Shown in pieces: positions 1,962 through 49,360 of a stretch of DNA of 64,000 bases. The stretch is taken from assembly GCA_046760105.1 (NCBI GenBank), contig JBHIDJ010000006.1, positions 3,197 through 67,196 on the forward strand. The letters run 5' to 3'. Source of the DNA: Acidiferrobacterales bacterium. Its GTDB lineage: Bacteria > Pseudomonadota > Gammaproteobacteria > Acidiferrobacterales > SPGG2. Numbering within the stretch: the stretch's first letter is position 1; every line of letters starts with the position of its first letter. The position numbers and the translations under genes were made by a program. Under the pieces are notes generated by a model. It was not told the origin of the DNA. It did no database searches and saw nothing but the letters and a program-made list of their open reading frames with translations.

Positions 1962-1970
1962 TCTCGAGAG

Positions 1971-2063
1971 TCGTGAACCGTTAACCGTGAGTCGGAAAGC
2001 GTAAAGCGTGTAGATTGCGCGTCGTCGACTTGCCCCTCACGACTAACGATTAACGACTAACGA
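1971..2063. repeat. heptamer-array inverted-repeat element, TCGTGAA/..TAACGA family, copy 1
   Basis: 93 nt stay in one 7-nt register: tcgtgaa ccgttaa ccgtgag tcggaaa gcgtaaa gcgtgta gattgcg cgtcgtc gacttgc ccctcac gactaac gattaac gactaac ga. The first six units are xCGTxAx and the last four are their reverse-complement type. The element starts 10 nt after the apaG stop and ends flush with the gyrB stop (2064). Confidence 0.85.
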
Positions 2064-5725: not shown

Positions 5726-6826
5726 TCACAAGCGCATGGGCATGACGACGTAGCGCGTATCTTGCTTGCCCGGTGCCTGTAACGTGCAGCTGCTATTGGC
5801 GTCGTTCATAGCGAGCTGTACTTCTTCCCCTTCAAGGCCATTGATGGCATCAATAACATAGTTCACATTGAAACCGATCTCGACGTCCTCCCCTTCATAG
5901 CCGATCGGCACGGCCTCCTCGGCCTCTTCCTGCTCTGGGTTGTGTGCAGTGATCGTGAGATTCCCCGACTGTATAGTGAAGCGTACACCACGATACTTTT
6001 CATTCGCCAAGATGGAGGCGCGTGTTAGTGCCTCACGTAGTACGCCGCGGTCCACGCGGATGATTTTTTGATAGGCGGCCGGTATCACTTGGTTATAGTC
6101 TGGGAAACGTCCGTCGATTAACTTCGCTGTCAGCGTAATGTCCTTGGCGCGCACCTGTGCGTGATTATTGCTCAGCCGTGCCTCCACTTCTTCCGGGGCA
6201 TTGCTAAGAAAACGCACCATCTCTAATACACCTTTGCGCGGCACAATAGCCTGTCGATCACCATCCTGCCCTGTCCCTAAACTAAACTCACTAATACCCA
6301 TGCGGTGCCCGTCGGTTGCGACCGCCCGCACCCGTGCCCCACTCAGTTCCAGTAATACGCCATTTAAGTAGTACCGGACATCTTGGTGTGCCATACAAAA
6401 CTGGGTGCGTTCTAGCAGCCGCTTCAGCGCTTCCTCTGGCAGCTTAAACGTGACATCCCACCCTCCGACCTCCACGTTGGGAAAATCTGCCACAGGCAAC
6501 GTCAGCAGGGTGAATCGGCTCCTGCCTGAGCGAATCACGACTCGCTCACCTTCTTGTTTGATCTCTAACTCAGCGCCACCCGGCAGCGCTCGGCATATAT
6601 CAAAGAGCTTGCGCGCAGGAATGGTTACCGCGCCCCCCTCGGCTGCGCCGGCGTTCGTTGTCGCCACCACCTCAATCTCCAGGTCGGTGCCTGTGAGCTG
6701 CAGTCCCGTCCCGTTTGACTGCACCAATATATTCGAGAGGATCGGCAACGTTTGCCGCCGCTCGACGACACCAGCAACGTGGCTTAGCGGTTTGAATAAA
6801 TCATCGCGATTGATGCGAATCTCCAT
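5726..6826 (-). CDS. dnaN: DNA polymerase III beta sliding clamp
   Basis: MEIRINRDDLFKPLSHVAGVVERRQTLPILSNILV...VMPMRL. Start moved to ATG 6826; the track ORF is extended 9 codons upstream. Confidence 0.96.
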   Translation of the reverse strand: MEIRINRDDLFKPLSHVAGVVERRQTLPILSNILVQSNGTGLQLTGTDLEIEVVATTNAGAAEGGAVTIPARKLFDICRALPGGAELEIKQEGERVVIRSGRSRFTLLTLPVADFPNVEVGGWDVTFKLPEEALKRLLERTQFCMAHQDVRYYLNGVLLELSGARVRAVATDGHRMGISEFSLGTGQDGDRQAIVPRKGVLEMVRFLSNAPEEVEARLSNNHAQVRAKDITLTAKLIDGRFPDYNQVIPAAYQKIIRVDRGVLREALTRASILANEKYRGVRFTIQSGNLTITAHNPEQEEAEEAVPIGYEGEDVEIGFNVNYVIDAINGLEGEEVQLAMNDANSSCTLQAPGKQDTRYVVMPMRL

Positions 6827-9356: not shown

Positions 9357-11019
9357 CACGCGTTTCTTGCTGATTATCGCGCTCGCGATCATCATATTCT
9401 TGATTTTCCAGGCGTGGCAAGAGGAACAACGTCGGGCGGCTGAGCCGCCCGAGATCGCGACAGCGCCCGCCACCCCGGATGCGCCGGATGCGCCCAAGCC
9501 CCCGGCGGCTGAGACACCGGTACCAGCCCCACCTGCGGTGGAGGAGCGACCCACGAAGGCACCCGAGGCACCGCCCACCCGCATCGAGACGGGCGCGCAA
9601 ATTACGGTGGTGACGGATGTGGTCGAGGCGGTCATCGATACCGCCGGCGGCGATCTGCGCGAGCTCAAGTTGCGCAAGTACCCGGTGTCGGTCGATAAGC
9701 CGGATGAGCCCTTTGTGCTGTTGGAGAGTGCCGGCAAACATATCTATGTCGCGCAGTCGGGGCTCATCGGCCTCGATCGGGAGTATCCCACTCACAATAC
9801 GCGTTACCAGGCAGAAGCAAGCCGTTATGTACTGGCTAAGGATGCGGATCGGGTGCAAGTGCCGCTGCGCTGGCAGGCACCCGATGGCGTGCGCTACACG
9901 AAGCTCTATACCTTTCACCGCGACAGCTACGTCGTCGATGTGGAGTTCCTTGTCGAGAACACCGACGCCGGGCCCTGGGAGGGGCATCTCTACCGTCAGT
10001 TCCGCCGGCGATATATCGATCCCAAGCGCGGCTGGTTGGCACTGCCCACATACACCGGTGCCGCCATCTACACGCCCGAGGATAAGTACGACAAGATCTC
10101 TTTCGGCGACATTCGCGACGAGCCGCTGGAACGCGACGTGACCGGTGGTTGGGTCGCGATGTTACAGCACTATTTTGTGGGTTCGTGGATGCCGGCAGCC
10201 GACGAGCGCAACCGCTTTTACACGCTGGCGCTCGCGGACGACAACTACACCGTGGGCCTGAAGCAATTAACGCCAACCACCGTGGCGCCGGGCGCGAGCG
10301 GCCGGTTAAAGACAACGATCTACGCTGGCCCCAAAGAAACCCGTCGTCTGACGCGGCTGGTGGAAGGCATGGAGCTTACCGTCGACTACGGCTGGCTTAC
10401 CGTCATATCGGCGCCGCTGTTCTGGTTGCTCCAGTACATTCACGGCTGGGTTGGGAACTGGGGCTGGGCGATCGTCGTGCTCACTTTTATCATCAAGCTC
10501 GTGTTCTATCCCTTGTCAGCCGCGAGCTACAAGTCGATGGCGCACATGAAACGGGTGCAGCCAAAGCTGCAGAGCCTGCGGGAACGCTTCGGTCATGACA
10601 AGCAGCGCATGAACCAGGCGATGATGGAGCTTTACAAGAAAGAGAAGATCAACCCGCTAGGCGGCTGTCTGCCGATCGCGATCCAGATCCCGGTGTTTAT
10701 CGCGCTTTACTGGGTGTTGCTCGAGAGCGTCGAGCTGCGCCAGGCGCCCTTCATTCTCTGGATCACGGATCTAAGTGTTCGGGATCCCTTATTCGCCTTG
10801 CCCCTGATGATGGGCGCGACCATGTTTATTCAGCAGAAGCTGAATCCTCCTCCCCCGGATCCGATGCAGGCAAAGGTCATGATGGCCTTGCCGTTCGTGT
10901 TCACGGTGTTCTTCCTGTTCTTTCCCGCGGGACTGGTGCTTTACTGGCTGGTTAACAACATCCTCTCAGTCGCCCAACAGTGGCAGATCACACACATGAT
11001 CGCGGCCAAGGCAAAATAG
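9349..11019 (+). CDS. yidC: membrane protein insertase YidC
   Basis: [25 protein letters not shown]-terminal TM, a long periplasmic domain, and the C-terminal core [19 protein letters not shown]...[20 protein letters not shown]. Start set to ATG 9349; the track ORF carries 35 extra codons. Confidence 0.95.
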
Positions 11020-16266: not shown

Positions 16267-16444
16267 GTGCGTGAGGCTGCAGTGTGGGTTCGGCCGCAAG
16301 GCCTAAATATCTACCTACTTTATAGTCAATGACAACCTGGGTGTCACAGAGATCCACCCCTCGTTCGGTGGCGCATACATACCTAGCCGCTTGGCGATGG
16401 TGCTATGATGCGCGCCGGCAACCCGTTTGCGCTATGCATTAACC

Positions 16445-18319
16445 ATGTTTTATCCAGAACCCTATGACATCATCATCATCGGCGGCGGTCACGCCGGTAC
16501 CGAAGCGGCCGCCGCCGCGGCTCGCATGGGCTGTAAAACCTTGCTGCTTACGCACAACATCGAAACCATTGGGCAGATGTCTTGCAACCCGGCGATTGGC
16601 GGGATCGGCAAGGGACATCTGGTGAAGGAAATCGATGCCATGGGTGGGATTATGGCACGTGCGACCGATCGCGCCGGCATCCATTTTCGGGTGTTGAACG
16701 CGCGTAAGGGAGCGGCGGTCCGCGCCACGCGTGCGCAGGCGGATCGCGTATTGTACAAGGTCGCGGCGCGCAGCCTGCTGGAAGACCAGCCCAACCTGAC
16801 TCTGTTTCAGCAAGCAGCTGATGATCTCGTGGTCGAAGGCGATGAGGTCCGTGGTGTGCTAACGCAGATGGGCTTGGCCTTTCGCGCCCGCGCCGTCGTG
16901 TTGACCACCGGTACCTTCCTCGGCGGACGCATCCATATTGGTCTGTCCAACTATCAGGGCGGGCGCGCCGGTGATCCGCCGGCAAACGCATTGGCGGCGC
17001 GGTTGCGCGAGCTGCCGTTACACGTGGGTCGCCTTAAGACCGGTACACCGCCTCGCATTGACGGCAAAACGATTAACTACGCGCTCATGGAAGAACAACC
17101 AGGCGACACGCCAACGCCTGTATTCTCGTATCTGGGCTCCGCCGCTGAACACCCGCCGCAGGTGCTGTGCCACATCACCCACACGAACGCGCACACGCAT
17201 GAAATTATTCGTGCAGGTCTTGATCGCTCCCCGATGTACACCGGCGTCATCGACGGTGTCGGCCCGCGCTATTGCCCGTCGATCGAAGACAAGGTTGTGC
17301 GCTTTGCCGACAAGCACTCGCATCAGATCTTCGTCGAGCCGGAAGGCCTGAACACGAGCGAGATCTATCCAAACGGCATCTCCACCAGTTTGCCGTTCGA
17401 CGTACAGTGGCAGCTGGTGCGTTCGATCAAGGGGTTCGAGCACGCCACCACCACGCGCCCAGGTTACGCCATCGAGTACGACTATTTCGACCCGCGCGGC
17501 CTGAAACCCACGCTGGAGACTAAAGTAATCACGGGCCTTTTCTTCGCCGGTCAGATCAACGGGACCACGGGTTACGAAGAAGCGGCAGCGCAGGGGCTTG
17601 TCGCCGGCATCAACGCCGCGCGGCACGTGCAGGGACGCGAGCCGTGGTGGCCGCGGCGTGACCAGGCCTACATGGGGGTGCTCATCGACGACCTTATTAC
17701 CCGCGGTACGGATGAGCCCTATCGCATGTTCACCTCGCGCGCCGAGTACCGCCTGCTACTTCGTGAAGACAATGCCGATCTGCGCTTGACCGAAATCGCA
17801 CACCGCCTGGGATTGCTGGATGATCTCCGCTGGGCACGGTTTTGCGCCAAGCGTGATACGATCGAGGCAGAACGCGAGCGCCTCGCTAGCAGCTGGGTGC
17901 GTCCGGAAGAGATCTCGCGCGAGCAAGCCATCAAGGCCCTCGGGCAGCCACTAACCCGGGCGTGCACCGCGTTCGACCTGCTGCGCCGCCCGGAGCTGAG
18001 CTATGAGGCAATTGCTGGCCTGCTGGATGAAGGCGCGGTCGTTAGCGATCGCGCCGTCACCCAGCAGCTGGAGATTATGGCCAAGTACTCCGGGTACATC
18101 GAGCGGCAGGCGCGAGAGATCGAGAGCCATAGCAAGCACGAGAACACCGCATTGCCAACACAGTTGGATTACGGAGCGGTGCGCGGGCTTTCGGTCGAGG
18201 TCCAGCAGAAACTCAACGCGCACAGGCCGGCGACCCTGGGTCAGGCATCGCGGATCTCTGGCGTGACCCCGGCGGCGATCTCATTGTTGCTCGTGCATCT
18301 CAAGCGCAAACGCGCCTAA
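16445..18319 (+). CDS. mnmG: tRNA uridine 5-carboxymethylaminomethyl modification enzyme MnmG (GidA)
   Basis: [22 protein letters not shown]..., [33 protein letters not shown]. Start set to ATG 16445. Confidence 0.97.
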
Positions 18320-18320
18320 A

Positions 18321-18416
18321 CTCGTTAACTGTAAATCGTTAGTCGTGAAGCGAGACTACGGCGCTGGCGTAACGCCGCACAATTTACACCTCACGGATCA
18401 CGACTAACGGTTTTAA
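18321..18416. repeat. heptamer-array inverted-repeat element, TCGTGAA/..TAACGA family, copy 2
   Basis: Left units are ctcgtta actgtaa atcgtta gtcgtga agcgaga. Right units are cctcacg gatcacg actaacg. A perfect 12-bp inverted repeat pairs cgttagtcgtga (18337-18348) with tcacgactaacg (18398-18409). Shares the 11-mer cacgactaacg with copy 1. Begins 2 nt after the mnmG stop. Confidence 0.8.
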
Positions 18417-27008: not shown

Positions 27009-27869
27009 ATGGCGGTCGGTAGAGAGATACGAAAAAAGATCAAGAGCATCCAGAACACGCAAAAGATTACGCGTGCGATGGAGATGGTAGCGGCAAGCAA
27101 AATGCGCCGGGCGCAAGAGCGTATGAGTGCCGCCCGACCGTATGCCGACAAGATGCGCAATGTCATCGGCCATCTGCACCATGCGCATCCTGAATACCGA
27201 CACCCATTTTTCACGGAGCGCGAGGCCAAGAACGCAGGTCTCATCGTTGTGACCACGGATCGTGGTTTGTGCGGTGGACTCAATACTAATGCGTTGCGTA
27301 CGGCGCTCGAAACGATGAGAGAGTGGGACAAAAGGAACGTCAGCACTCAGCTGTGCTGCATCGGCACCAAGGGTTTAACGTTTTTCCGGCGCATCGGCGC
27401 AAACATCCGTTCGGAAGTTACCCACCTCGGCGATACGCCGCGGGTGGAAGACCTTATCGGTACCGTCAAGGTGATGTTGGATGCGTACGTCGACTCAGCC
27501 ATTGATCGCCTACACATCGTTTACAGTCATTTCATAAATACTATGAGCCAGCGGCCAGTGATCGAACAGCTATTGCCGCTTCCAGGAACGGAGGAAGAAG
27601 AGCTGACACATTACTGGGATTATATCTATGAGCCGGACGCGCAAGAGGTTGTCGATGATCTGTTGCGGCGTTACATTGAAGCGCTGATCTATCATGCTGT
27701 AGTCGAGAATCTGGGGTGCGAGCAGTCGGCGCGCATGGTCGCGATGAAGTCGGCCTCGGACAATGCGGGCAAACTTATCGACGAGTTTACGTTGAAATAT
27801 AACAAGGCGAGGCAGGCGGCGATTACACAAGAGATTTCCGAGATCGTCGCTGGCGCAGCAGCCGTCTAA
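27009..27869 (+). CDS. atpG: F0F1 ATP synthase subunit gamma
   Basis: [32 protein letters not shown] and C-terminal [20 protein letters not shown]. Confidence 0.97.
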
Positions 27870-27870
27870 A

Positions 27871-27967
27871 AGTCTAGTTGCAAGTAGCAAGTGGCAAGCG
27901 ACAAGGAGCAGGCCAGGAACAGGGACCATGTCCGGTTTTTCTTGCTACTTGAAACTTGCTACTCGCT
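27871..27967. repeat. heptamer-array inverted-repeat element, GCAAGTA/CTTGCTA family, copy 1 (atpG-atpD spacer)
   Basis: Left units are ttgcaag tagcaag tggcaag cgacaag gagcagg. Right units are tcttgct acttgaa acttgct actcgct. A perfect 11-bp inverted repeat pairs caagtagcaag (27881-27891) with cttgctacttg (27941-27951). Starts 2 nt after the atpG stop and ends 3 nt before the atpD SD AAGGAGG. Confidence 0.85.
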
Positions 27968-27971
27968 GTAA

Positions 27972-29356
<1,385 letters not shown>

Positions 29357-29357
<1 letters not shown>

Positions 29358-29449
29358 AAAGCAGTAGCAAGCGCCAAGTAGCAAGTGACAAGTGAAACAC
29401 CCAAATTTGGTTTTCTTGCTACTTCACAGTTGAAACTTGAGACTTAGTT
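29357..29449. repeat. heptamer-array inverted-repeat element, GCAAGTA/CTTGCTA family, copy 2 (atpD-atpC spacer)
   Basis: Left units are gtagcaa gcgccaa gtagcaa gtgacaa gtgaaac. The centre holds the 10-bp palindrome ccaaatttgg. Right units are ttcttgc tacttca cagttga aacttga gacttag. Inverted repeat aagtagcaag (29376-29385) with cttgctactt (29415-29424). Fills the spacer from the atpD stop to the atpC ATG. Confidence 0.85.
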
Positions 29450-29872
29450 ATGGCGATGACCATGCATGTGGATATCGTGAGCGCCGAAGAGGAAATCTAC
29501 TCGGGCACGGCAGAAATGGTGTTCGCGCCTTTGGCGACAGGCGAGGTGGGGATACTGCCGCGCCACGCGCCGCTGATCGCGCGTATGAGGCCGGGCGAAG
29601 TGCGCGTGCGCAAGGGTGGTGAGGACCAGTTTTTCTATGTCTCGGGTGGGCTGCTAGAGGTACAGCCGCATGTTGTGACGGTGCTTTCGGATACGGCGGT
29701 ACGCGCCAAAGATCTCGATGAGGCGGCTGCGGTAGAAGCCCAGCGCCGAGCGGAGGAGGCGCTCAAAGACAGAAAAGCGGACATCGATTATGCCAGGGCG
29801 CAGGCAGAGTTAATCGAGGCCACCGCCCAACTACGCATGATTCGTCGCCTGCGCGAGAAGCTCAAGAAATAG
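29450..29872 (+). CDS. atpC: F0F1 ATP synthase subunit epsilon
   Basis: [43 protein letters not shown], the typical epsilon N-terminus. Confidence 0.95.
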
Positions 29873-30199
29873 CCCTGGCCATCTTCTCCCCGATCATCGC
29901 GGCCCGAATGCGTGGCAGCCTGCGTCTAGCCGCCAAGCGCTTGTAGTACGCAACAATTGAAATGATTGCTCACCAGCAGTCACATAACCAATTGAAAAAT
30001 ATAGGATTATCTGAGTGGGGGAGGTCTGCCAGGGCAAGCGCTGCGAGGTGTCACGGTGCCCTACAGTGCAATCGTCTTGCCCCCACACGGCAATGCGCGA
30101 GAAACTATTCAAGCATACCGTACGGCTGCTATTTTTTGATTAAGGGCTTAGCTTGAACGCGCTGTAATAGACAGTACACCACGTCACCCCGACAACGTC

Positions 30200-31570
30200 A
30201 TGACGCTAGAGGCTATTATTCTCGCCGCGGGCCAGGGCACACGCATGTATTCGGATACCCCCAAGGTATTGCATGATCTGGGCGGCAAACCGTTGCTTGT
30301 TCACGTGCTCAATACCGCCGCGAGCCTCGAAGCGCAAACCATTCATGTCGTGTATGGTCATGGGGGCGAACGTGTACGCGACTGTGTAGAGGGCAACGAC
30401 TTAAACTGGGTATTGCAGGCCGAACAGAAGGGCACAGGCCATGCGCTGATACAGGCATTACGTGACGTCGCAGACGACGCCTTGGTGCTAGTGTTATACG
30501 GCGATGTGCCATTGATACAGCGCGAGACGTTGACGGCTCTCGTGAAGGCAGCCAGTGACGACAGGTTGGCACTTGTTACTGTCGAACTCGACGATCCTAC
30601 CAGTTACGGGCGAATCATCCGTGACGCTGAAGGCAGGGTAGTGAAAATCGTGGAGGAAAAGGATGCAAGCACCGATGAGCGCGCGGTACAAGAAGTCAAT
30701 GCGGGGTTCCTCGCGGCGCCGGCGGGCAGGCTCAAGTCTTGGTTAGCAAACGTGGATAACCAAAACGCGAAGGGCGAGTATTATCTAACAGACGTTATCG
30801 CAATAGCTGCCGCCAGTGGCTTCAGCATTGCTACCTGCAAACCGCGCTCGACTTGGGAAATAAGGGGTGTAAATAATAAATTGGAACTGGCACAGCTTGA
30901 GCGCGTATACCAGCAGCAACAGGCACAGGTACTGATGAAGCAAGGTGTTACACTGCGAGACCCGACGCGATTCGATCTACGTGGTCAGCTTAAAGCAGGT
31001 CGTGACGTCGTGATTGATGTCAATGTAGTGCTGGAGGGAGAAGTCGTTTTAGGCGATAGTGTGCAAATCGGACCCAATAATTTTCTACGGAGCTCATCCA
31101 TCGGCGCCGCCACCGTAATTCTCGCCAATTGCGTCATTGAGGAATCAGTTGTGGGACGCAACTGTCAGATTGGGCCGTTTGCGCGGTTACGTCCCGGACC
31201 ACAGATCGCCGATCAAGCACGCATCGGGAATTTCGTCGAGATAAAGAAATCCGAGATCGGCGAAGGCAGCAAGATCAATCACCTGAGTTACGTCGGTGAT
31301 ACGGTAGTGGGCAAGAATGTCAACATTGGTGCGGGTACCATCACCTGCAACTACGACGGCGCCAACAAGAACCAGACAATCATTGGTGACAATGTTTTTA
31401 TCGGTTCCGACGTGCAGCTGGTGGCGCCGGTAACCGTCGGTGAAGGCGCCACCATCGGCGCGGGCTCGACGATAACCAAGGACGCACCAGCGGGGCAGCT
31501 GACCCTGAGTCGTGCCGAGCAACGGACGCGAAAGGGGTGGAAAAGGCCGGTTAAGAAAAGTAAATCGTGA
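30200..31570 (+). CDS. glmU: bifunctional UDP-N-acetylglucosamine pyrophosphorylase / GlcN-1-P acetyltransferase
   Basis: ILAAGQGTRMYSDTPKVLH N-terminal NTP-transferase motif and C-terminal left-handed beta-helix hexapeptide repeats (NVNIGAGTITCNYDGANK). Confidence 0.97.
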   Translation: MTLEAIILAAGQGTRMYSDTPKVLHDLGGKPLLVHVLNTAASLEAQTIHVVYGHGGERVRDCVEGNDLNWVLQAEQKGTGHALIQALRDVADDALVLVLYGDVPLIQRETLTALVKAASDDRLALVTVELDDPTSYGRIIRDAEGRVVKIVEEKDASTDERAVQEVNAGFLAAPAGRLKSWLANVDNQNAKGEYYLTDVIAIAAASGFSIATCKPRSTWEIRGVNNKLELAQLERVYQQQQAQVLMKQGVTLRDPTRFDLRGQLKAGRDVVIDVNVVLEGEVVLGDSVQIGPNNFLRSSSIGAATVILANCVIEESVVGRNCQIGPFARLRPGPQIADQARIGNFVEIKKSEIGEGSKINHLSYVGDTVVGKNVNIGAGTITCNYDGANKNQTIIGDNVFIGSDVQLVAPVTVGEGATIGAGSTITKDAPAGQLTLSRAEQRTRKGWKRPVKKSKS

Positions 31571-31759
31571 GCCGTGTATCATGACTCGTGAAACCGTGAG
31601 TTGTGAACCGTGGATTGGGTAGCAAGGGAAGGCTCACAGTTGTGCATCAAGACGCTCCTGATTAGTTGCTTACGACTAACGAATCACGAATTACGACTCA
31701 CGACTAATGACTAACAACTCGCGAATTACGACTCACAAATCACAACTAACGACTTACGA
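31564..31759. repeat. heptamer-array inverted-repeat element, TCGTGAA/..TAACGA family, copy 3 (largest; glmU-glmS spacer)
   Basis: The right arm is 13 contiguous heptamers at 31669-31759: cttacga ctaacga atcacga attacga ctcacga ctaatga ctaacaa ctcgcga attacga ctcacaa atcacaa ctaacga cttacga. The left arm at 31564-31613 carries the complementary word: atcgtga gccgtgt atcatga ctcgtga aaccgtga gttgtga accgtgg. It spans from the glmU stop to the glmS SD. Confidence 0.9.
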
Positions 31760-31767
31760 GGTGTACT

Positions 31768-33600
31768 ATGTGTGGCATTGTTGGTGCGGTTAGTCAGCGC
31801 AGCGTAGTACCGATCCTGCTTGAGGGGCTCAAGCGTCTCGAATACCGCGGCTATGACTCCGCTGGCGTGGCGGTATTGGACAGCCAGAATAGTATTGAAC
31901 GCTTGCGCACCGTAGGTAAAGTAGGAGTGCTTGAGGAGGCGATTCGAGAGAACGAGCTCAGCGGGGCCACCGGTATTGCCCATACGCGTTGGGCGACGCA
32001 CGGTGTACCTAGCAAAGATAACGCTCATCCGCACATGTGCTATGACCGCTTGGCGGTGGCACACAATGGAATCATTGAAAATCACGAAGCCTTGCGAGCG
32101 AAACTCGAAGACCTTGGCTACCAGTTTGCCTCACAAACCGACACCGAGGTTATTGCCCATCTGATCGATCACCACCGGACTGAGCATCCTGATCTACTCG
32201 CGGCGACGCAAGCGGCGATTCAGGAGCTCGAAGGCGCGTACGCCATTGCTGTGTTGAGCCACGATGAGCCTGAACGCATCGTCGGCGCGCGCAAGGGCAG
32301 CCCACTCGTCGTCGGTATCGGTGTCGAGGAGCACTTCTTGGCTTCGGACGTGTTGGCGCTTGCACCGGTGACCCGGCAGGTGATCTATCTAAACGAGGGT
32401 GACGTGGTTGATCTGCACCGGACGAGGTGCGCTGTCTACGGTGTTGATGGTAAGCAAGCGGAACGCGCGGTACGTGTGTCAAAAACGTCGGCCGACGCCG
32501 TAGATCGTGGCCAGTACCGCAACTTCACGCAAAAAGAGATCTTCGAGCAGCCGCAAGCGCTAGCGGATACGCTCGAGGGGCGCATAGGCAGCGATCGTAT
32601 CCTCGAACGGGCGTTTGGTGTCAATGCGCCGGCGGTTTTTGATGCGGTGGAGGCGGTGCAGATTATTGCCTGCGGAACCAGCTATCATGCAGGGCTGGTC
32701 GTCCGCTATTGGTTGGAAAACTTGGCAGGGTTGCCGTGTGCGGTGGAGATTGCCAGCGAGTTTCGTTATCGCAAACACGCCGTAAGGCCCAATACGCTCG
32801 TTGTGGCCATCTCCCAGTCCGGCGAGACAGCAGATACGCTTGCGGCCGTGCAGTATGCGAGGTCGCTCGGATTGGAACGTACGCTGGCGATATGCAATGT
32901 CCCGGAAAGCTCTCTCGTGCGGGATTCGGATTTGGTGTTATTCACGCGTGCTGGACCGGAGATCGGTGTGGCGTCGACCAAAGCGTTTACCACGCAGCTG
33001 GGCTCCTTATTGTTGCTCGTGGTCGCGCTGGCGCGTCGTCACGGACTTACGCCGCAGCAGGAGCAGGCAATCGTCGCGGAATTGGAGCAACTACCCGGGC
33101 ACCTGAGCGCGGTGTTGGCGCTGGACGACAAAATCAAACAGCTGGCCGAGCGTTTTGTGGACAAACATCACGCGTTGTTCTTGGGGCGCGGCGTGCAATT
33201 CCCGATTGCACTCGAAGGTGCGCTGAAGCTGAAAGAAATCTCGTACATCCACGCCGAGGCGTACGCCGCGGGCGAACTCAAGCACGGGCCGCTGGCGCTG
33301 GTAGATGCGAACATGCCGGTGGTGGCGGTGGCGCCGAACGATGACCTGCTGGAAAAACTGAAATCCAACCTCCAAGAGGTACGGGCACGCGGTGGTGAGC
33401 TGCTGGTATTCTCGGAGGCGGGGGCGGGGGTGCGCTCGGAGAACGGCACGACCATCGTGCAGATACCCGCAGCCGGTGAGTTCACGGCGCCGATTCTTTA
33501 TGTCGTGCCGTTACAACTCTTGGCCTATCATGTCGCGGTGGTCAAGGGTACCGACGTCGACCAGCCGCGCAATCTCGCCAAATCGGTGACGGTGGAGTAA
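31768..33600 (+). CDS. glmS: glutamine--fructose-6-phosphate aminotransferase
   Basis: MCGIVGAV (N-terminal catalytic Cys), two SIS domains, C-terminal [13 protein letters not shown]. Confidence 0.98.
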
Positions 33601-33618: not shown

Positions 33619-36600
33619 TTATTGCCAGCACTCACCCGGCGCGTTCGCTTTGCCTTTGCCCGGATCAGTCTGAGCCGGTGGCTCGCGGACGAGACCCTCG
33701 TCCTGCTCGAACCGCTTGTGTGTTCTGTAAATCTGCCGGCGTTTGTCGAACCAAGGGCGTGCCTTGGAAATTCTCCATTTTTTCTTGCCATCACGCAGTT
33801 CGACAGCCACCGACAGAGCACGGAGTTTTGCGTAGAAAACCCCCGCGACCTGGCGCTGAAAAATATCGAGTTCACCGAGAATTTTGAGCCTGTCTCCTGT
33901 CATCTCGAGATCCTCGACCTCGACCGCCTTGCCATCCATCTTGAAGTCAGCACGGGTTTTGATGTCTGTAACGGTGAGCAGATTCTTGAACCACCGGACA
34001 ATCCCCTTTTTTTCTGAAAGAAGCACGACAACGGGGCGCGAGTCACGCATTTCCATCTCAATGCGCGCCTCGAGCTGCGCCGGGGTCGTTACTTGCATTT
34101 TGGCTTGCGGCAAACTAAGACGCGCCCACCAGGTAGTATCGGTGCCGATCTTGGCAGTCCCGACGTACATGTTATTGAGTTCAAGCTTTGTGTCACCTAT
34201 GTCAAATGTGCGTGCCTTCAGGTCACCGTTCTTGAGGTGGGCATGTAGCGTCATGTCGCCCGCCATTGTCACGTTCCTGAATTGAGCCACGATCCGCTCG
34301 GCGCGGAACTCAACCTCACCCTTCGCTGACGCCTCCGTTTCGGATGCCTCAATGCGGGTTCGGATTCGACCACGGCCGGAATGTATAAAAAAGCAGGAGT
34401 CGGGCGGGACATAAGCGTTGTAGAAACCGAAGTTCGGAACGTCGGATTCTGGTAGATCCAGGACCACTTTAAGATCAGTAAACGGATCGGTGAGATCCAA
34501 TTCAGAGCTCGTACCGGTGATTTCGAAGCCGATGCCGAAAATGTGGGGTTCTACGTATTCTGACCTTCCGAGTTCGAAGTCATCCAGCGTTACCGTCACT
34601 TCCGCAAAGGCCCGATCCTTCTCGCGAGCGACGCGGCCACGTACCTTGCCCGAACCGCGCGCCTTAAAGTCGAGATAGGTGGCTCGAATCTCATCGGAGT
34701 CAACGGCCAAGCGACTACCGGCAACGAGCCTCCCTTTGCGCACGCGCAAGAAAGCATTGAGCGTTCCGGACCCATTAATATCGAGCCATGGCGCCTTACG
34801 GAAATAGGCGTTCAGGAATTGCAAGCCAGGGACACGGCCAGCCACGCGCACAGTCCCGGATATTGAACGCAATGCATCTTGGCTTTTTTGCTCAGCGAGT
34901 ACGAGGTGGTCAAATATGGAGTCAACGTTTATCGTCAGATCCTTAACGGCCTTTCCATCCCTGAGCCGTACCTCTCCCGAGGCCAACTGTAGCGAAGCTT
35001 TGCGTATAGCCAGTGGCCCTTCGGTAAGAACGATTAGACCGTCGGCGCGCTCGCCCTTATCACTCGGCCCATACTGAACATCGGTCACGACCTTCAGATT
35101 TCCCGACAGGGCGACGTCTTGGAATGCGGCGGCGACACCGGTGCCGGTTATTGCGAGGTTAGCGGTTGTGGTGGGGTGCCCTTGGGCAGTCTCAAACAGG
35201 CCGTCAAAGCGACCAGCGCCGGACCGGATGCGCAGCCCCGTCCGTGACGGAATGTAGTTATTAAGATAGCTCAGATCTGGTATGGTGCCGTCGACGCGCG
35301 CGGATGCGGACATGAAACGCGTCAAGTCGAACACCTTTTTTAGATCTAGAGTGTACTGGGCAAACTCGGACTGCAACTCTAGCGTAAAGTCTTTGGCAAT
35401 GGTTTGCTGCCGATCGCGTATCTTTCCCGAGGTGAGCGTCACCGATGCTTTCAACACTTCTAACCACCCTAGCTCGCTGAAGGCGACCAAGCCCTTATCG
35501 TCCCGCTCCTGCAACCCATATTGAAGGTCGGCACTCAACTCTAGCTCGCCGGCGACAACGAGATCTTTGAGCTCGGCCGTGACATCTTCGCCAATGAGTA
35601 CTAAGTGGCCCGTAGCATCGGGTTGCCCCGACGCCGTCTCGAAGCGGGTCTGAATTTGACCGGTACCCGAACGGATGCGTAGACCCGTCTGTGATGGGAG
35701 GTAGTCATTGAAATATGGCAGATTCGGAATCCTACCAGCGACACGCAGCGATCCAGAGGTGTAATCGAATACACTGAGCGCTTTGTGTGGATCCAGCGTG
35801 TATTGGTCAAAGGCGGATTCGAGCTCTAGCGTGAAATCCTGAGCGATGACTTGCTGTCGATCGCGTATCTTTCCGGAGGTGAGCGCGACTGAAAGCTTCG
35901 ACACTTCGAACGGCGCGTCGGAGAATACGATCAATCCGTCTTCGTCCTCTTCCAACCCGTACTCGAGGTCCGCCTTAACACTCAAATCACCGCCAATGGT
36001 GAAATGCCTGTATTGCATTACCGTACCTTGGCCTACGACCTCGATTTTACCCTCGGCCGTTCGTTCTTGCGGGGAGCTCGTAAAGCGGCTGCGCATGCGG
36101 CCGCTACCTGCACGAATGGTGATGTCCATCTCTTGCGGGATCAATGTGTTGAAAAAGCTGAGCTCCGGCACCTCGGCGTCCGGCAGGTCGACGATCAACG
36201 TTAGGTCAGTGAAAGGGTCACGTAGGTCGAGGTCGCTGCTGGTACCACTGACCTGTAATTCACGGCCAAGAGCAAAAGGTCTTTGTGCTTGCGCTTGTGC
36301 CAGCTCAAAAGTCTCTAGCGCCACGGACACTTTTGCTACGGGCTTCCCGTTCTCGAGTTCGACGCGACCCTGCACCTTACCTGGGCCCTTGGTGGTGATG
36401 GTGTAATTGGCTGCGTTAATCACGATTTCTGCCGTTTCGACGGTGACACGGGTTTCCTGCGACAGCACCCCTTTCTCCAGGTGCAGTTCAGCATCCAGCA
36501 CGCCGCTGCCATCGATATTGAGCCACGGCATTTTGCGGAAGTAGGCTTTCAAGAAGTTCAAACCTTTTACAGCTGCCGTATGGCGCACAGTTCCCGAGAC

Positions 36601-37338
36601 GAATCCCAAGGCTTTGATGCCTTTCTCTTCGCTGGGGACGAACTCATCGATCGTAATATCGGCATGCAGTTCACTGTCTTCCTCAACGACCGTGTCTCCT
36701 ATCCACCAGTTCCCTGAGGTGAGCACTACAGTTGCGCGCGGCACTTCAAGCGGTCCTCTGATGGTGTGTATCATGCTACCGCTCACGCGCCCGTCGCCAG
36801 CGAAGCGGAATTGCTCGATCCACAATGTGCGGACATCACTGATTGCGATGTTGTTCATCTCCAACGTCCACGGGGACTTACGGGTTGTCCGCGGGTACAG
36901 GTTTTCCGGGGGTGGCTGCGGTGGGTTCGAGAGCCCGGGAATAGATGGAGTTAAATCAACATATTGAGGTTTGGGCTCGTCTGGACGTAATCGCTGGCGC
37001 ATCCGGAACTCGAGCCCACGGCCGTTCATCGAATTGGCCTGGAACCGTTTCAGCAAAAGCGGGATTAAATCGATCGATGCACGAATCTCGTCGAGTTCCG
37101 CATACCACTGAAACCTTCTATCTTGTCCGCGAATCTGGAGACCTTGAACGTGAACAATGCCGGGGAACAGCGTCCAACCCTTTTCCCATCGAATCCACAA
37201 TTTCTCCGGCTTTCGGTTGATTAGTTGTGATGCTATCTCGGTATTGAGAAAAAGGTTTGCCAGCACGAGGTAAAGCCCTGTGACCACGACCACCGCGATC
37301 ACGACATGCGTTAGCCACTTTCGCAGAGATGACTTCAT
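33619..37338 (-). CDS. 1239-aa N-terminally membrane-anchored repeat protein; AsmA/TamB/YhdP-like architecture (function unassigned)
   Basis: One N-terminal TM (WLTHVVIAVVVVTGLYLVLANLF), then beta-rich sequence with internal modules. An outer pair is GTSSDLDLRDPFTDLTLIVDLPDAEVP versus GTSSELDLTDPFTDLKVVLDLPESDVP. Tandem inner modules are SGKIRDRQQVIAQDFTLELESAFDQYTLD versus SGKIRDRQQTIAKDFTLELQSEFAQYTLD. The family assignment is inferred from architecture only. Confidence 0.85.
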   Translation of the reverse strand: MKSSLRKWLTHVVIAVVVVTGLYLVLANLFLNTEIASQLINRKPEKLWIRWEKGWTLFPGIVHVQGLQIRGQDRRFQWYAELDEIRASIDLIPLLLKRFQANSMNGRGLEFRMRQRLRPDEPKPQYVDLTPSIPGLSNPPQPPPENLYPRTTRKSPWTLEMNNIAISDVRTLWIEQFRFAGDGRVSGSMIHTIRGPLEVPRATVVLTSGNWWIGDTVVEEDSELHADITIDEFVPSEEKGIKALGFVSGTVRHTAAVKGLNFLKAYFRKMPWLNIDGSGVLDAELHLEKGVLSQETRVTVETAEIVINAANYTITTKGPGKVQGRVELENGKPVAKVSVALETFELAQAQAQRPFALGRELQVSGTSSDLDLRDPFTDLTLIVDLPDAEVPELSFFNTLIPQEMDITIRAGSGRMRSRFTSSPQERTAEGKIEVVGQGTVMQYRHFTIGGDLSVKADLEYGLEEDEDGLIVFSDAPFEVSKLSVALTSGKIRDRQQVIAQDFTLELESAFDQYTLDPHKALSVFDYTSGSLRVAGRIPNLPYFNDYLPSQTGLRIRSGTGQIQTRFETASGQPDATGHLVLIGEDVTAELKDLVVAGELELSADLQYGLQERDDKGLVAFSELGWLEVLKASVTLTSGKIRDRQQTIAKDFTLELQSEFAQYTLDLKKVFDLTRFMSASARVDGTIPDLSYLNNYIPSRTGLRIRSGAGRFDGLFETAQGHPTTTANLAITGTGVAAAFQDVALSGNLKVVTDVQYGPSDKGERADGLIVLTEGPLAIRKASLQLASGEVRLRDGKAVKDLTINVDSIFDHLVLAEQKSQDALRSISGTVRVAGRVPGLQFLNAYFRKAPWLDINGSGTLNAFLRVRKGRLVAGSRLAVDSDEIRATYLDFKARGSGKVRGRVAREKDRAFAEVTVTLDDFELGRSEYVEPHIFGIGFEITGTSSELDLTDPFTDLKVVLDLPESDVPNFGFYNAYVPPDSCFFIHSGRGRIRTRIEASETEASAKGEVEFRAERIVAQFRNVTMAGDMTLHAHLKNGDLKARTFDIGDTKLELNNMYVGTAKIGTDTTWWARLSLPQAKMQVTTPAQLEARIEMEMRDSRPVVVLLSEKKGIVRWFKNLLTVTDIKTRADFKMDGKAVEVEDLEMTGDRLKILGELDIFQRQVAGVFYAKLRALSVAVELRDGKKKWRISKARPWFDKRRQIYRTHKRFEQDEGLVREPPAQTDPGKGKANAPGECWQ

Positions 37339-46311: not shown

Positions 46312-46411
46312 GATGCGCGAGGGCGTGACGGAATGCGAGACTCTCGGGGTTAAGTTGTTTTCCGTTTTCGTAGGTATTCGTAGTGATCAAGGTTGAGGGT
46401 TCTTTGCTTTG

Positions 46412-49123
46412 ATGAATAAGACCGGCAATACCAGAACTAAGCCATTCATTTTGGTCGATGGCTCATCGTATCTCTACCGCGCATTCCATGCCATGCCACA
46501 ACTGACGAATTCCCGTGGTGAACCGACGGGTGCGGTATACGGTATCACCAATATGTTGCGCAAGCTGCTCGCGGATTACGACCCGACGCATATCGCCGTA
46601 GTATTCGACGCTAAAGGCAAGACCTTCCGCGACGAGATCTACGCGGATTATAAGGCTAACCGACCACCTATGCCTGAGGAGCTTGCTGCCCAGATCGAAC
46701 CAATCCACGCCATCGTCCGCGCCATGGGGCTGCCGTTGCTCATCGTCGAAGGGGTCGAAGCGGATGATGTCATCGGCACCTTGGCGGCTGGGGCGGCCGA
46801 GCACGGCCTCGATACGCTAATCTCAACCGGTGACAAGGATATGGCGCAGCTGGTCAGCGACCACGTCGTTCTGATCAATACGATGACCGATACTCTATAC
46901 GATAAACAAGGTGTGCACGAAAAATTCGGCGTGCCACCAGAACATATGGTTGATTATCTCGCACTGATCGGCGACAGCGTGGACAACATACCTGGCGTGC
47001 CCAAGGTAGGGTCCAAGACCGCCGCCAAGTGGTTGCAAGAGTACGGTTCGCTGGACGAAATCGTCACCCACGCCGATGAGATCGGCGGAAAAGTGGGTGA
47101 TAATCTCCGCGCTTGTCTAGGGCAGCTGCCACTGTCGCGGCAACTCGTGACTGTTAAGTACGATGTACCGCTGGATCAGGGACCTGAGGCACTAACGCGC
47201 CAGCTACCGGATGAGGCGAAACTACGAGAGCTTTACACACGCCTGGAGTTCAAAACCTTGCTCGCCGAGCTCGTTGGCAGCGAACGGTCAGTGCAAGAGA
47301 ACGCACAGAGCATGGCGGCGCGCTATGAAACGATCTTCGATGACGAGCACCTCGATGACTGGATCGAACGTCTAAGGGTAGCCGGTCTGTTTGCGTTTGA
47401 TACGGAGACCACTGCTCTCGATGCGATGCGTGCTGAGCTTGTCGGCGTTTCATTCACGTACAAAGCGGGTGCCGGTGCATATGTTCCGGTTGGTCATGCG
47501 TATCCTGGTGTGGCCAAACAGCTCGACCGTGATCGTGTACTAAGCAAACTCAAGCCAATTCTGGAAGATCCGGCTAGCACCAAAGTTGGCCAAAACCTTA
47601 AGTATGACCTGATCGTCATGCACCGCTATGGCATCGAAGTTGCCGGCTTAGGATTCGACACTATGCTCGAGTCTTATGTGCTTAACAGTACGGCGTCGCG
47701 CCATGATATGGACAGTCTCGCATTGCGATATCTTGGCTATAAGACATTGAAATATGAGGAAGTGGCTGGCAAGGGCAAGGGCCAGATCAACTTTAGTGAG
47801 GTACCGGTGGAGCAAGCGGCTCCTTACGCTGCCGAGGATGCCGACGTGACGCTGCGACTGCACAAGGCTTTGTGGCCAAGACTGCAGGAGATAGCAAAGC
47901 TGAAGATGCTGTTCGAAGAGCTCGAAATGCCGCTAATACCCGTGCTCTCGCAGATGCAATGCACAGGCGTAAGGATAGATGCCGATATGTTAGCGTATCA
48001 GAGCAACGAGCTTGCACGGCGCATGTTGGAGCTCGAACGGGAGGCACACGAAACCGCTGGCCAGCCGTTCAATCTCGAGTCGCCGAAGCAAATCCAGGAG
48101 GTGTTATACGACAAACTTGGGCTGCCGGTGTTGAAGAAAACCCCAAAGGGGCAGCCGTCAACCGCTGAAGATGTCTTGCAGGAACTGGCGTTGGACTATC
48201 CGTTGCCAAGAATCATCCTCGAGTATCGCGGACTGAGCAAGCTCAAGTCCACCTATACCGATAAGCTGCCTGAGATGATCAACCCAGAGACCGGGCGCGT
48301 GCACACCTCTTACCACCAAGCCGTCGCGGCCACCGGCAGGTTGTCGTCGAGCGATCCCAATTTGCAAAACATCCCGGTGCGTACGGCCGAAGGGCGACGA
48401 ATCCGACGGGCGTTTATCGCTGATCAGGGTTGCAAGATATTATCCGCCGACTATTCGCAGATCGAATTACGCATTATGGCGCATCTGTCAGGCGATAACG
48501 GCCTGCAGCAAGCATTCGCCGAAGGCATGGACGTGCACCGCGCAACGGCGGCAGACGTGTTTGGGGTCGCGCCCGAGCTCGTCACGGATGAAATGCGCCG
48601 AAACGCCAAGGCCATCAACTTCGGTTTGATTTACGGCATGTCGGCATTTGGGCTGGCACGGCAATTGAAGGTTGATCGTAGCACCGCCCAACAATACGTC
48701 GATCTGTACTTCACCCGCTATCCCGGCGTGAAGGACTTCATGGACCACACACGCCAGCAGGCGCGTGAACAAGGATTTGTCGAGACCGTATTCGGGCGGC
48801 GCCTCTATGCACAGGACATCAACGCGAGCAACCAGGCGCGGCGCCAATATGCCGAGCGTGCCGCCATCAACGCCCCCATGCAAGGAACGGCCGCAGACCT
48901 CATCAAGCTCGCAATGCTGGCGGTAGATGTGTGGATTCGGGACGCCGGTGTAAGGGTGAAGATGATTATGCAGGTGCACGACGAGCTGGTGTTCGAGGTC
49001 GCCGAGCAGGAGGTGGAGAAGGCGTGTGAGAACATTCGGCGCTGTATGAGCGATGTCGCTACCCTCTCGGTCCCGTTAGTGGTCGATATCGGGGTCGGCG
49101 ATAATTGGGACGAGGCGCACTAG
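46412..49123 (+). CDS. polA: DNA polymerase I
   Basis: 5'-nuclease N-terminus (ILVDGSSYLYRAFHA), 3'-5' exo (FAFDTETT), and pol motifs DYSQIELRIMAHLS and QVHDELVFE. ATG 46412; the track uses TTG 46409. Confidence 0.98.
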   Translation: MNKTGNTRTKPFILVDGSSYLYRAFHAMPQLTNSRGEPTGAVYGITNMLRKLLADYDPTHIAVVFDAKGKTFRDEIYADYKANRPPMPEELAAQIEPIHAIVRAMGLPLLIVEGVEADDVIGTLAAGAAEHGLDTLISTGDKDMAQLVSDHVVLINTMTDTLYDKQGVHEKFGVPPEHMVDYLALIGDSVDNIPGVPKVGSKTAAKWLQEYGSLDEIVTHADEIGGKVGDNLRACLGQLPLSRQLVTVKYDVPLDQGPEALTRQLPDEAKLRELYTRLEFKTLLAELVGSERSVQENAQSMAARYETIFDDEHLDDWIERLRVAGLFAFDTETTALDAMRAELVGVSFTYKAGAGAYVPVGHAYPGVAKQLDRDRVLSKLKPILEDPASTKVGQNLKYDLIVMHRYGIEVAGLGFDTMLESYVLNSTASRHDMDSLALRYLGYKTLKYEEVAGKGKGQINFSEVPVEQAAPYAAEDADVTLRLHKALWPRLQEIAKLKMLFEELEMPLIPVLSQMQCTGVRIDADMLAYQSNELARRMLELEREAHETAGQPFNLESPKQIQEVLYDKLGLPVLKKTPKGQPSTAEDVLQELALDYPLPRIILEYRGLSKLKSTYTDKLPEMINPETGRVHTSYHQAVAATGRLSSSDPNLQNIPVRTAEGRRIRRAFIADQGCKILSADYSQIELRIMAHLSGDNGLQQAFAEGMDVHRATAADVFGVAPELVTDEMRRNAKAINFGLIYGMSAFGLARQLKVDRSTAQQYVDLYFTRYPGVKDFMDHTRQQAREQGFVETVFGRRLYAQDINASNQARRQYAERAAINAPMQGTAADLIKLAMLAVDVWIRDAGVRVKMIMQVHDELVFEVAEQEVEKACENIRRCMSDVATLSVPLVVDIGVGDNWDEAH

Positions 49124-49237: not shown

Positions 49238-49360
49238 GGACGATCCTGGTGGATCGTCTTGCCCGCTCCTCCTCCCTGAGCGGGTAGTTCCTGGGCTTTT
49301 TCTTATGCAGGAACGGTTAGGCCCCGGGCTCTCTCCCCTTGTTTTCCGGGGCTTTTTTTT
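49238..49360 (+). ncRNA. candidate small RNA in the polA-engB spacer (Spot42/ErsA-position)
   Basis: Four consecutive hairpins. (1) gacgatcc/ggatcgtc, 49239-49258, 8 bp perfect. (2) cccgctc/gagcggg, 49262-49284, with loop CTCCTCCCT. (3) gttcctg/caggaac, 49287-49314. (4) gccccgg/ccggggc, 49321-49352, followed by T8 (49353-49360). No ORF. Confidence 0.45.

Follow-up and report, generated by a model that had tools for sequence, protein, structure and literature searches.

The window analysed here is a 64,000-nucleotide stretch of an Acidiferrobacterales genome (contig JBHIDJ010000006.1). The spacer between its glmU and glmS genes is an inverted pair of heptamer arrays of the simple sequence repeat (SSR) kind. 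This pair is one of a genome-wide family, and it is conserved in position and hypervariable in sequence and length. It occupies the whole non-coding gap from the last conserved glmU codons to the Shine-Dalgarno (SD) sequence of glmS, and it belongs to the class of long heptameric SSRs and is built like the inverted (GGGANTN)n pairs of Xanthomonas. On balance, we think it probable that the element is a hypervariable extragenic palindrome made by slippage and resembling the repetitive extragenic palindromic (REP) sequences, which at the most would serve as a hairpin between the cistrons or as a dial of expression, and not as a switch that masks the ribosome-binding site (RBS) of glmS. The architecture itself is not new, since inverted pairs of heptamer arrays are already known from Xanthomonas; the bacterial order and the unit sequences (words) are.

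Structure of the glmU-glmS spacer

The right arm contains 13 heptamers of the (C/A)TNACGA form without any gap. A first-pass annotation had noticed these consecutive units, and both direct reading and Tandem Repeats Finder (TRF) bear them out. In order they are cttacga, ctaacga, atcacga, attacga, ctcacga, ctaatga, ctaacaa, ctcgcga, attacga, ctcacaa, atcacaa, ctaacga and cttacga. Compared with NTNACGA, 8 of the 13 units are exact and the other 5 have one mismatch. T2 and A7 are present in 13/13 units, A4 and C5 in 12/13 and G6 in 10/13; the bases at positions 1 and 3 differ between units. The arm is poor in G (A36 C26 G11 T18; 11 G in 91 nt). TRF assigned it a period of 7 with 12.6 copies, plus superimposed periods of 14 and 35 nt, and the 35-nt copies were also shown by the repeat search. 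When the 64-kb window was scanned by autocorrelation, the period-7 signal was observed at two places only, this right arm and 1968-2074, and no signal was obtained at periods 5, 6, 8 and 9. The word ACGANTNACGA was counted 9 times (0.63 expected).

The left arm is made of seven units of the TCGTGAG/CCGTGAN type (tcgtgag, ccgtgta, tcatgac, tcgtgaa+a, ccgtgag, ttgtgaa and ccgtgga) with a single 1-nt phase slip, and so agrees with the roughly seven complementary units read before. Its complementarity to the right arm is 72–81% in at least six registers. The proposed packing from stop codon to SD is also found. The glmU stop codon TGA (31568-31570) falls within left-arm unit 1, and the last glmU codons (..PVKK-SKS-stop) are read out of the first repeat units. 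At the other end, GAGG (31757-31760), the SD of glmS, shares bases with right-arm unit 13 and is followed by a 7-nt gap and the ATG at 31768. Across all six frames the element contains 29 stop codons, compared with 20.3 ± 3.4 in shuffles. The spacer is identical base for base in two independent Logan assemblies, which shows that it is not an assembly artefact.

The centre of the element does hold one GTAGCAAG word at 31619, as described earlier, but the link drawn from it to the repeats of the atp operon fails. Three isolated copies are present in the window versus 1.4 expected, which is the level of chance, and GTAGCAAG as a bridge between the ACGA and GTAGCAA families was therefore rejected.

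Inverted pairs of heptamer arrays are present at five loci of the window, three of the ACGA type and two of the GTAGCAA type (Table 1), so the five-member family proposed before stands. All five begin 0–3 nt from a stop codon, and in all of them the same heterogeneous unit forms two convergent, closely spaced arrays, as in the Xanthomonas pairs. They share the heptamer only; length, centre and ends are all different. As in long heptameric SSRs and short tandemly repeated repetitive (STRR) sequences, the 7-nt units are arranged head to tail beyond chance, occur at several intergenic loci and vary in copy number. None of the eight divergent spacers of the window contains a heptamer element.

The spacer in related genomes

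Loci of relatives were obtained by exact-protein look-up and one metagenome scan, and the glmU-glmS spacers were then read (loci of other genomes carry L numbers). This comparison, one of the checks proposed for the element, showed that 10 relatives within the Acidiferrobacterales have a stop-to-SD hairpin in this spacer, each arm having 2–13 units (Table 1). The hairpin architecture is retained across the relatives despite complete sequence turnover. Both arms vary jointly between genomes, for example where T-A in the window is C-G in L128/L208, and the right arm has at least as many units as the left one across the spacers read. In every close orthologue the stop codon lies within the first unit and the SD adjoins the last one. 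The glmU frame ends at a stop provided by the first units, and the residues after PVKK vary (SKS, RKP, DRKS). In the close relatives with a CGTGA-type word (L003, L006, L128 and L210), the last unit and the SD together make ACGAGG.

Among the loci from the metagenome scan, L128 was the only close relative and L129 the only distant one that was informative. The other 78 loci were 58–64% identical, and in the eight of them that were read (L130-L137) no spacer with repeats was found. Length variation within a population was not seen, as the spacer is identical within the window genome (3 assemblies), L004/L005 (2) and L211/L212 (2).

The rate of turnover is best seen between L208 and L209. The first 600 nt of their glmS genes are 96% identical and the 3' ends of glmU are nearly identical, yet their spacer cassettes are unrelated; the alignment is lost right after the PVKK codons and regained some 10 nt 5' of the ATG. 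On reading, the spacer before glmU, which has no array, looks well conserved between the same two genomes. Because the cassettes differ between near-identical flanks, the repeat hairpins are far more labile than ordinary non-coding DNA. The flanks of L128 are 82% identical to those of L208, yet the cassette is common to both, unique centre included. The cassette pattern in these three genomes (L208:3402-3550 versus L209:5925-6000, and L128:2400-2500) suggests allelic exchange or very rapid replacement.

In the atp operon, the atpD-atpC spacer of L006 uses the GTAGCAA word, both atp spacers of L004 use TGAGGCG, and atpG-atpD of L007 uses 9-mers (CACAGAGNN). L007, Sulfuricaulis limicola (AP014879.1), has arms of 9-nt tandem units at atpG-atpD (5993-6102, CACAGAGNN) and at glmU-glmS (9891-10000, GGATTNACT), and its glmU-glmS copy ends with a T7 run like that of an intrinsic terminator. 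In L211 (4250-4413, 5803-6000 and 575-765; L212 identical), REP-like GTAGGGTGGATTAAGCGCAGCGAATCCACC palindromes and their relatives lie in the glmU-glmS and neighbouring spacers, where they occupy the sites of the heptamer hairpins of other relatives. On sequence grounds, this sharing of a site supports a functional or positional equivalence of the two kinds of palindrome.

Table 1. Window features, by position, and glmU-glmS spacers of the relatives, by locus
Feature or locus	Position in window	Strand	GlmS identity	Units per arm (left + right)	Word, evidence or remark
glmU, 456 aa	30200..31570	+			Open reading frame (ORF); the identical L001 gene has the Pfam domains NTP_transferase and Hexapep
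Left arm	31565..31614	+		7 units	Reading and repeat search
Centre, non-repetitive, 54 nt	31615..31668	+			Holds one GTAGCAAG; not conserved among distant orthologues
Right arm	31669..31759	+		13 heptamers	Reading, TRF and repeat search
glmS SD GAGG, 7-nt gap and ATG	31757..31770	+			ACGAGG junction likewise in L003, L006, L128 and L210
glmS, 610 aa	31768..33600	+			ORF; Pfam on the identical L001 gene; GlmS 100% match to a protein of an Acidiferrobacterales metagenome-assembled genome (MAG)
ACGA-type pair	1962..2063	n/a			Exactly fills the stop-to-stop gap of convergent ORFs
ACGA-type pair	18320..18415	n/a			First base right after the stop of the 630-aa ORF 16427-18319
GTAGCAA-family pair, atpG-atpD spacer	27870..27975	+			AGTAGCA ... 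TGCTACT; fold z -4.35
GTAGCAA-family pair, atpD-atpC spacer	29358..29445	+			GTAGCAA/TTGCTAC; L006 has the GTAGCAA word at the matching site
L003			86%	~4 + 4	TCGTGAG / CTCACGA
L128			84%	2-3 + 4	CCGTGAT / ATCACGG
L208			84%	3 + 13	CCGTGAT / ATCACGG (the L128 word)
L209			84%		GGAGTGA / CCTCAC
L004			83%		Degenerate version of the L209 word (GGAGTGA/CCTCAC)
L006			82%	4 + 4-5	TCGTGAG / CTCACGA, almost perfect
L210			81%	3 + 5-6	The window's own word (TCGTGAG/CTCACGA)
L211/L212			76%		No heptamer arms; classical REP-like GTAGGGTGGATT... palindromes
L007 (Sulfuricaulis limicola)			72%		9-nt units GGATTNACT / AGTNAATCC, then T7
L129			69%		CAAGTNN/NNACTTG, the atp-type word of the window

Predicted folding of the spacer RNA

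In the predicted minimum free energy (MFE) structure, all seven units of the left arm are paired with units 1–7 of the right arm, and about six distal units together with the SD lie outside the hairpin. The frequency of this structure in the ensemble is 0.0003, because many registers are available. The slippery pairing in several registers suggested by the first-pass annotation is thereby confirmed at the level of prediction.

In E. coli, glmUS mRNA is processed by RNase E, and glmS is activated by GlmZ/GlmY at the glmU-glmS spacer. The Acidiferrobacterales element has the same intercistronic position and could answer the same general need to set GlmS apart from GlmU; in contrast, it has no similarity to the E. 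coli region in sequence or structure. It had been suggested that the repeat structure masks the glmS RBS. An RBS-masking riboregulator that replaces the enterobacterial RNase E/GlmZ mechanism would agree with this location in the spacer that is regulatory in E. coli, with the overlap of the last unit and the SD, and with the many pairing registers. However, neither the MFE nor the ensemble folds, made for the window and 8 orthologues, ever predicted pairing of the SD with the left arm. In these folds the SD pairing probability was 0.11–0.76 and the partner was the glmS coding start, and the MFE structure leaves the SD and the distal units free of the hairpin. Elements of this kind also lie in a convergent gap and in the atp spacers, none of which calls for such a switch. 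Rfam detected no match to GlmZ/GlmY and no other RNA family at the spacer, either in a search of the whole window at the gathering threshold or in one of 31450-31850 at E<=10. We therefore consider this riboregulator highly improbable.

In the window, a contact was predicted within 31725-31795, where distal right-arm units (ctcacaaatcacaactaacga) pair with the first glmS codons (ttgttggtgcggttagt). The SD pairing probability in this contact was 0.64, and the left arm is not involved.

Heptamer arrays in other phyla

A scan of 185,579 species genomes with the pattern ACGANTN x3.5 returned at least 120 matching stretches, compared with about 4 by chance according to our own estimate from 19 fixed bases. 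The matches listed come from Planctomycetota, Verrucomicrobiota, Cyanobacteria, Acidobacteriota, Chloroflexota, Bacteroidota, Ignavibacteria, Nitrospirota, Deltaproteobacteria and Gammaproteobacteria, and many of them show hairpins of array, loop and inverted array (for example L008, L012, L025, L030, L034, L035, L102 and L106). All of the following counts refer to the matches listed. An inverted partner within 250 nt was present for 47/134 arrays (35%), and the two controls gave 8 (complement only) and 3 (reverse only). About half of the arrays (53/109, 49%) had an edge at most 30 nt from the stop of a facing long ORF, versus 48/545 random positions. The array midpoint was inside an ORF of at least 100 aa in 43/109 cases versus 479/545 controls, and divergent spacers accounted for 5 of 74 classified arrays versus 53 of 328 background spacers. 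The scan is silent on preferred words, because ACGA and T were fixed in its pattern.

Several genomes of the scan contain different heptamer words side by side or nested (L106:607-1046; L026, L029, L103, L110 and L120). In L106, GTCGTCA arms surround TCGAAGG/CCTTCGA arms. From these sequences, some genomes appear to be broadly permissive for heptamer arrays and not bound to one word.

Comparison with described repeats

The closest described counterpart is found in Xanthomonas campestris and X. axonopodis, which have 186 (GGGANTN)n arrays with conserved unit positions 1–4 and 6, including 70–75 convergent, closely spaced pairs per genome (PMC4692102). About 90% of these arrays are intergenic, the mean distance to the ORF before them is 28 nt, they are seldom found between divergent genes, and they occur between the same gene pairs in two species with widely varying length and sequence (PMC4692102). 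They are transcribed, and tests found no function (Rehm et al., 2015, PMC4692102). The Xanthomonas and window pairs are alike in being inverted arrays of heterogeneous heptamers that keep close to the 3' end of the preceding ORF and are scarce in divergent spacers. The view that the polarity switch in the middle of the array fits no known paradigm was therefore too strong, and the switch is not new, because the Xanthomonas pairs share this architecture. Between GGGA-n-T-n and the window's ACGA-n-T-n, fixed positions 1–4 and 6 are common and G3, A4 and T6 are identical. These shared bases may be a coincidence, and the cross-phylum scan is no test of them because its pattern fixed them. The two systems differ in that the window pair spans the whole stop-to-SD gap inside operons and that two word families coexist in the window. 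They also differ in base composition. The Xanthomonas word is G-rich and was read as a former of G-quadruplexes or i-motifs (PMC4692102), whereas the window units TCGTGAG/CTNACGA and GTAGCAA contain no G3 tract. Since they are without G-tracts, G-quadruplex chemistry cannot apply to the window words.

Heptamers are the most abundant class of long SSR in most prokaryotic genomes, and polymerase slippage was proposed as their origin (Mrazek et al. 2007, as quoted in PMC4679880); cyanobacterial STRR heptamers are known from Calothrix PCC 7601 (cited in PMC4692102). The window element resembles them in its period of 7, its intergenic location, its many loci with a genome-specific word and its variable copy number among relatives. 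In contrast, they are mainly direct arrays, and as quoted in these two papers the paired hairpin layout and the packing between stop and SD are not emphasised.

Marine Beggiatoaceae, some Cyanobacteria and Bacteroidetes have TAACTGA arrays that end shortly before start codons (MacGregor 2015, PMC4679880). Binding of S1, Csp or CsrA and a post-transcriptional role were proposed for these sets, which consist of a single word in 2–6 copies (169 direct, 1 indirect; PMC4679880). Like the window element, they are heptamer arrays of Gammaproteobacteria placed a few nt before starts, housekeeping genes included, and the unit contains stop triplets; unlike it, nearly all are direct and have no hairpin partner. 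The corresponding explanation, in which the heptamer would be the recognition unit of S1, Csp, a CsrA-like protein, Rho or a complementary sRNA that controls translation or termination downstream, appears unlikely to us. It would account for the use of one word at several unlinked loci per genome and of different words in different genomes, for the position-specific conservation within the unit, for the 13 units immediately 5' of the SD, and for a G-poor right arm that is partly unpaired in the predicted fold. However, two unrelated words coexist in one genome and swap sites (L129 has the atp-type word in glmU-glmS), and the words of L208 and L209 differ at the same gene, so that the factor would need to change equally fast. 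The C>G skew is also missing in orthologues with the TCACGGN word, for which reason a Rho utilisation (rut) site formed by the right arm was rejected as a general feature. No candidate factor was identified.

Among hairpins made from a heptamer array, hmw1A is the one case whose mechanism has been worked out by experiment. In the 5' untranslated region (UTR) of this Haemophilus influenzae gene, (ATCTTTC)n forms a long hairpin, RNase III cleaves it, and expression falls in inverse proportion to n (Rapun-Araiz et al. 2025, PMC12721329). As in the predicted fold of the window element, a heptamer SSR in a transcribed leader is one arm of a long hairpin and varies in unit number. The partner arm, however, is a G-rich non-repeat, and the locus encodes a phase-variable adhesin of a pathogen instead of a housekeeping operon.

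REP sequences are single palindromes of 20–40 nt that have a conserved stem and carry a tag, GTAG or CGTC; they are copied as units and mobilised by REP-associated tyrosine transposases (RAYT) (PMC3733652). One of them, REP325, is a stabiliser and partial terminator (bioRxiv 10.64898/2026.03.23.713779). Together with their composite forms, the bacterial interspersed mosaic elements (BIME) and REP doublets (REPIN), they share with the window elements the extragenic, palindromic nature, the location just past stops between co-directional or convergent genes, the specificity to a species and the frequent arrangement as inverted pairs. Stalling of ribosomes near the stop codon has been reported for REPs that lie within 15 nt of it (Liang, Rudd and Deutscher 2015). 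The window arms, on the other hand, are 7-nt arrays of variable number without a conserved full-length unit, and no tagged palindrome repeated as a unit was found among the window copies, in contrast to the GTAGGGTGGATT... REPs of L211.

These likenesses raise the question of a mobile element, in which cassettes resembling REPINs or miniature inverted-repeat transposable elements (MITE) are inserted beside stops by RAYT or another transposase encoded elsewhere. Dispersed copies with a genome-specific word, the exchange of whole cassettes with sharp boundaries, the incongruent distribution of cassettes (L209 with L004, L208 with L128) and the true REP-type elements at the glmU-glmS site in L211 all speak for it. 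But the copies share only the short unit and not length, centre or ends. No full-length similarity or target-site duplications were seen among the five window copies, no terminal inverted repeats apart from the arrays, and no single palindrome with a GTAG or CGTC tag in the sense of PMC3733652. Unit numbers that differ between arms and between orthologues are of the kind that slippage makes, and not copy-and-paste. A transposase-like Pfam match adjoined none of the fetched copies (64 kb of the MAG and the relatives' loci). Mobility of this kind is therefore improbable.

Origin and possible function of the element

In the reading we prefer, that of a slippage-made, REP-like palindrome, units would be gained and lost 7, 14 or 35 nt at a time, by slippage during replication or by unequal exchange; growth and shrinkage by slippage are suggested by these step sizes, by the unequal arms and by the range of 2–13 units. 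Complementarity of the arms would be maintained by selection for pairing, by template switching between the arms, or by both. The array would spread until it meets functional sequence, namely the last constrained glmU codon and the SD, and the stop codon and SD would therefore be built from terminal units. The glmUS transcript is predicted to form an imperfect, multi-register hairpin of about 45 bp that starts at the glmU stop. In the window genome the distal six or so right units would then be a G-poor, A/C-rich unpaired leader of about 40 nt before the glmS SD. With a hairpin next to the stop and an unpaired leader behind it, the element would act like REP/BIME sequences or like the heptamer hairpin of the hmw 5'-UTR. 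It may be a barrier to 3' exonucleases, a site for a double-strand-specific RNase, or a partial terminator. The hairpin would uncouple and tune the output of glmU and glmS, with unit number as the dial. A role of the hairpin in mRNA processing, as the first-pass annotation suggested, is plausible.

The main rival is that the element is a neutral by-product, junk from slippage and template switching that fills free non-coding space without a selected effect on glmU or glmS. We regard this as possible, though clearly less probable than the preferred reading. A number of results weigh against a functional hairpin. The glmU-glmS hairpin of the window, named earlier as the flagship copy of the family, barely beats dinucleotide shuffles. 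The MFE of the 241-nt region was -62.6 kcal/mol and the shuffle mean -60.3 (z -0.52; spacer alone -1.25). With 7 units on the left and 13 on the right, half of the right arm is without a partner. In 15 elements compared, the sense RNA folded better than the antisense in 7 and worse in 8. This lack of strand bias in folding energy means that there is no G-U signature of selection on the transcript, and on these model energies the palindromes seem equally good as DNA-level objects. No Rfam family was found at the spacer under the two search settings given above. In 31400-31800 no terminator-like site with a GC-rich stem and U-run was detected, and a scan of 27700-32000 for sigma-70 promoters and intrinsic terminators gave nothing in the element above chance. 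Elements differ in presence at orthologous atp spacers, being missing from atpG-atpD of L006 (19-nt spacer) and atpD-atpC of L007 (22 nt) and hence dispensable there. Among the listed matches of the cross-phylum scan, arrays with an inverted partner were the shorter ones, at a median of 4 units compared with 5 for solo arrays (p=0.004). Pairing thus does not drive expansion, and the idea that an inverted partner promotes it was rejected.

Neutrality would also agree with the replacement of cassettes between 96%-identical genomes, with the housing of an unrelated REP at the glmU-glmS site, with array edges that match functional boundaries exactly, as unconstrained spreading predicts, and with the tests of Xanthomonas arrays that gave no function (PMC4692102). 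Several observations are harder to reconcile with it. The palindrome was kept in the glmU-glmS spacer by 10/10 close and middle-distance relatives despite total sequence turnover, and the arms remain complementary across word changes. Most orthologous hairpins and the other window elements fold well beyond shuffles, with z from -2.5 to -6.5. The division of the unit into fixed and variable positions is unlike uniform decay. The stop-codon proximity and the avoidance of divergent spacers in the listed cross-phylum matches are REP-like.

A broader version of the slippage-made palindrome can be formulated, which we hold to be rather doubtful. Heptamer-array palindromes would be a pan-bacterial, self-renewing counterpart of REPs in at least 10 phyla, a separate class of hairpins beside stop codons that is turned over by slippage and cassette replacement and needs no transposase. 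The Acidiferrobacterales would have taken them up as intercistronic unit-number dials for glmS and for ATP synthase beta/epsilon, perhaps via processing by a double-strand-specific RNase as in the hmw leader, and would fill the role of RNase E/GlmZ.

Other observations in the window

A motif, TCTAGGCAA ... TATTGT ... GCTGCTA(T), is located upstream of glmU and is conserved in the relatives while the rest of that spacer diverges (window 30000-30150; L003 8068-8517, L004 8322-8562, L006 8328-8548, L208 1755-2030 and L209 4275-4547). Judged from its sequence, it may serve as a promoter or operator, or else be part of an RNA. On the other side, convergent with glmS, lies a 1239-aa ORF (33619-37338, minus strand) with no Pfam match on record, whose counterparts at the matching position are 1250 aa long in L004, 1068 aa in L006 and 1241 aa in L208. 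Rfam reported a match to anti-hemB (RF02837, a Burkholderia sRNA) at 49260-49360 (+) with 52.3 bits versus a gathering threshold of 49.5; it is located in the spacer after the 904-aa ORF 46409-49123.

A near-consensus parS site (TGTTCCACGTGAAACA, 1 mismatch) was found at 4637-4652 and a weaker second one at 5258-5273, both inside the ORF 4606-5694 (minus strand). The parS sites together with mnmG, parAB and the atp operon place the window near the replication origin. An identity of the heptamers with parS was considered because of the likeness of the units to its half-sites (CGTGAAA / TTCACG), and it was rejected, as no position of the arrays matches the 16-bp palindrome TGTTNCACGTGAAACA.

Biological significance

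The only detailed description of the inverted-pair form invoked G-quadruplex chemistry, and the window shows the same architecture with words that are not G-rich. The window case and the cross-phylum scan argue that the relevant property is a hairpin built from repeats beside a stop codon and not the word. What is surprising is the breadth and REP-like character of this class, more than the glmU-glmS copy of the window itself. The elements are inside the most conserved operons (atp and glmUS), persist at one spacer through turnover and are interchangeable with REPs. The natural glmU-glmS alleles of 2–13 units, together with cultured relatives such as Sulfuricaulis limicola, provide a test bed for the tuning of expression within an operon. 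If the elements had no effect, they would still be a striking case of rapid non-coding turnover between near-identical genes.

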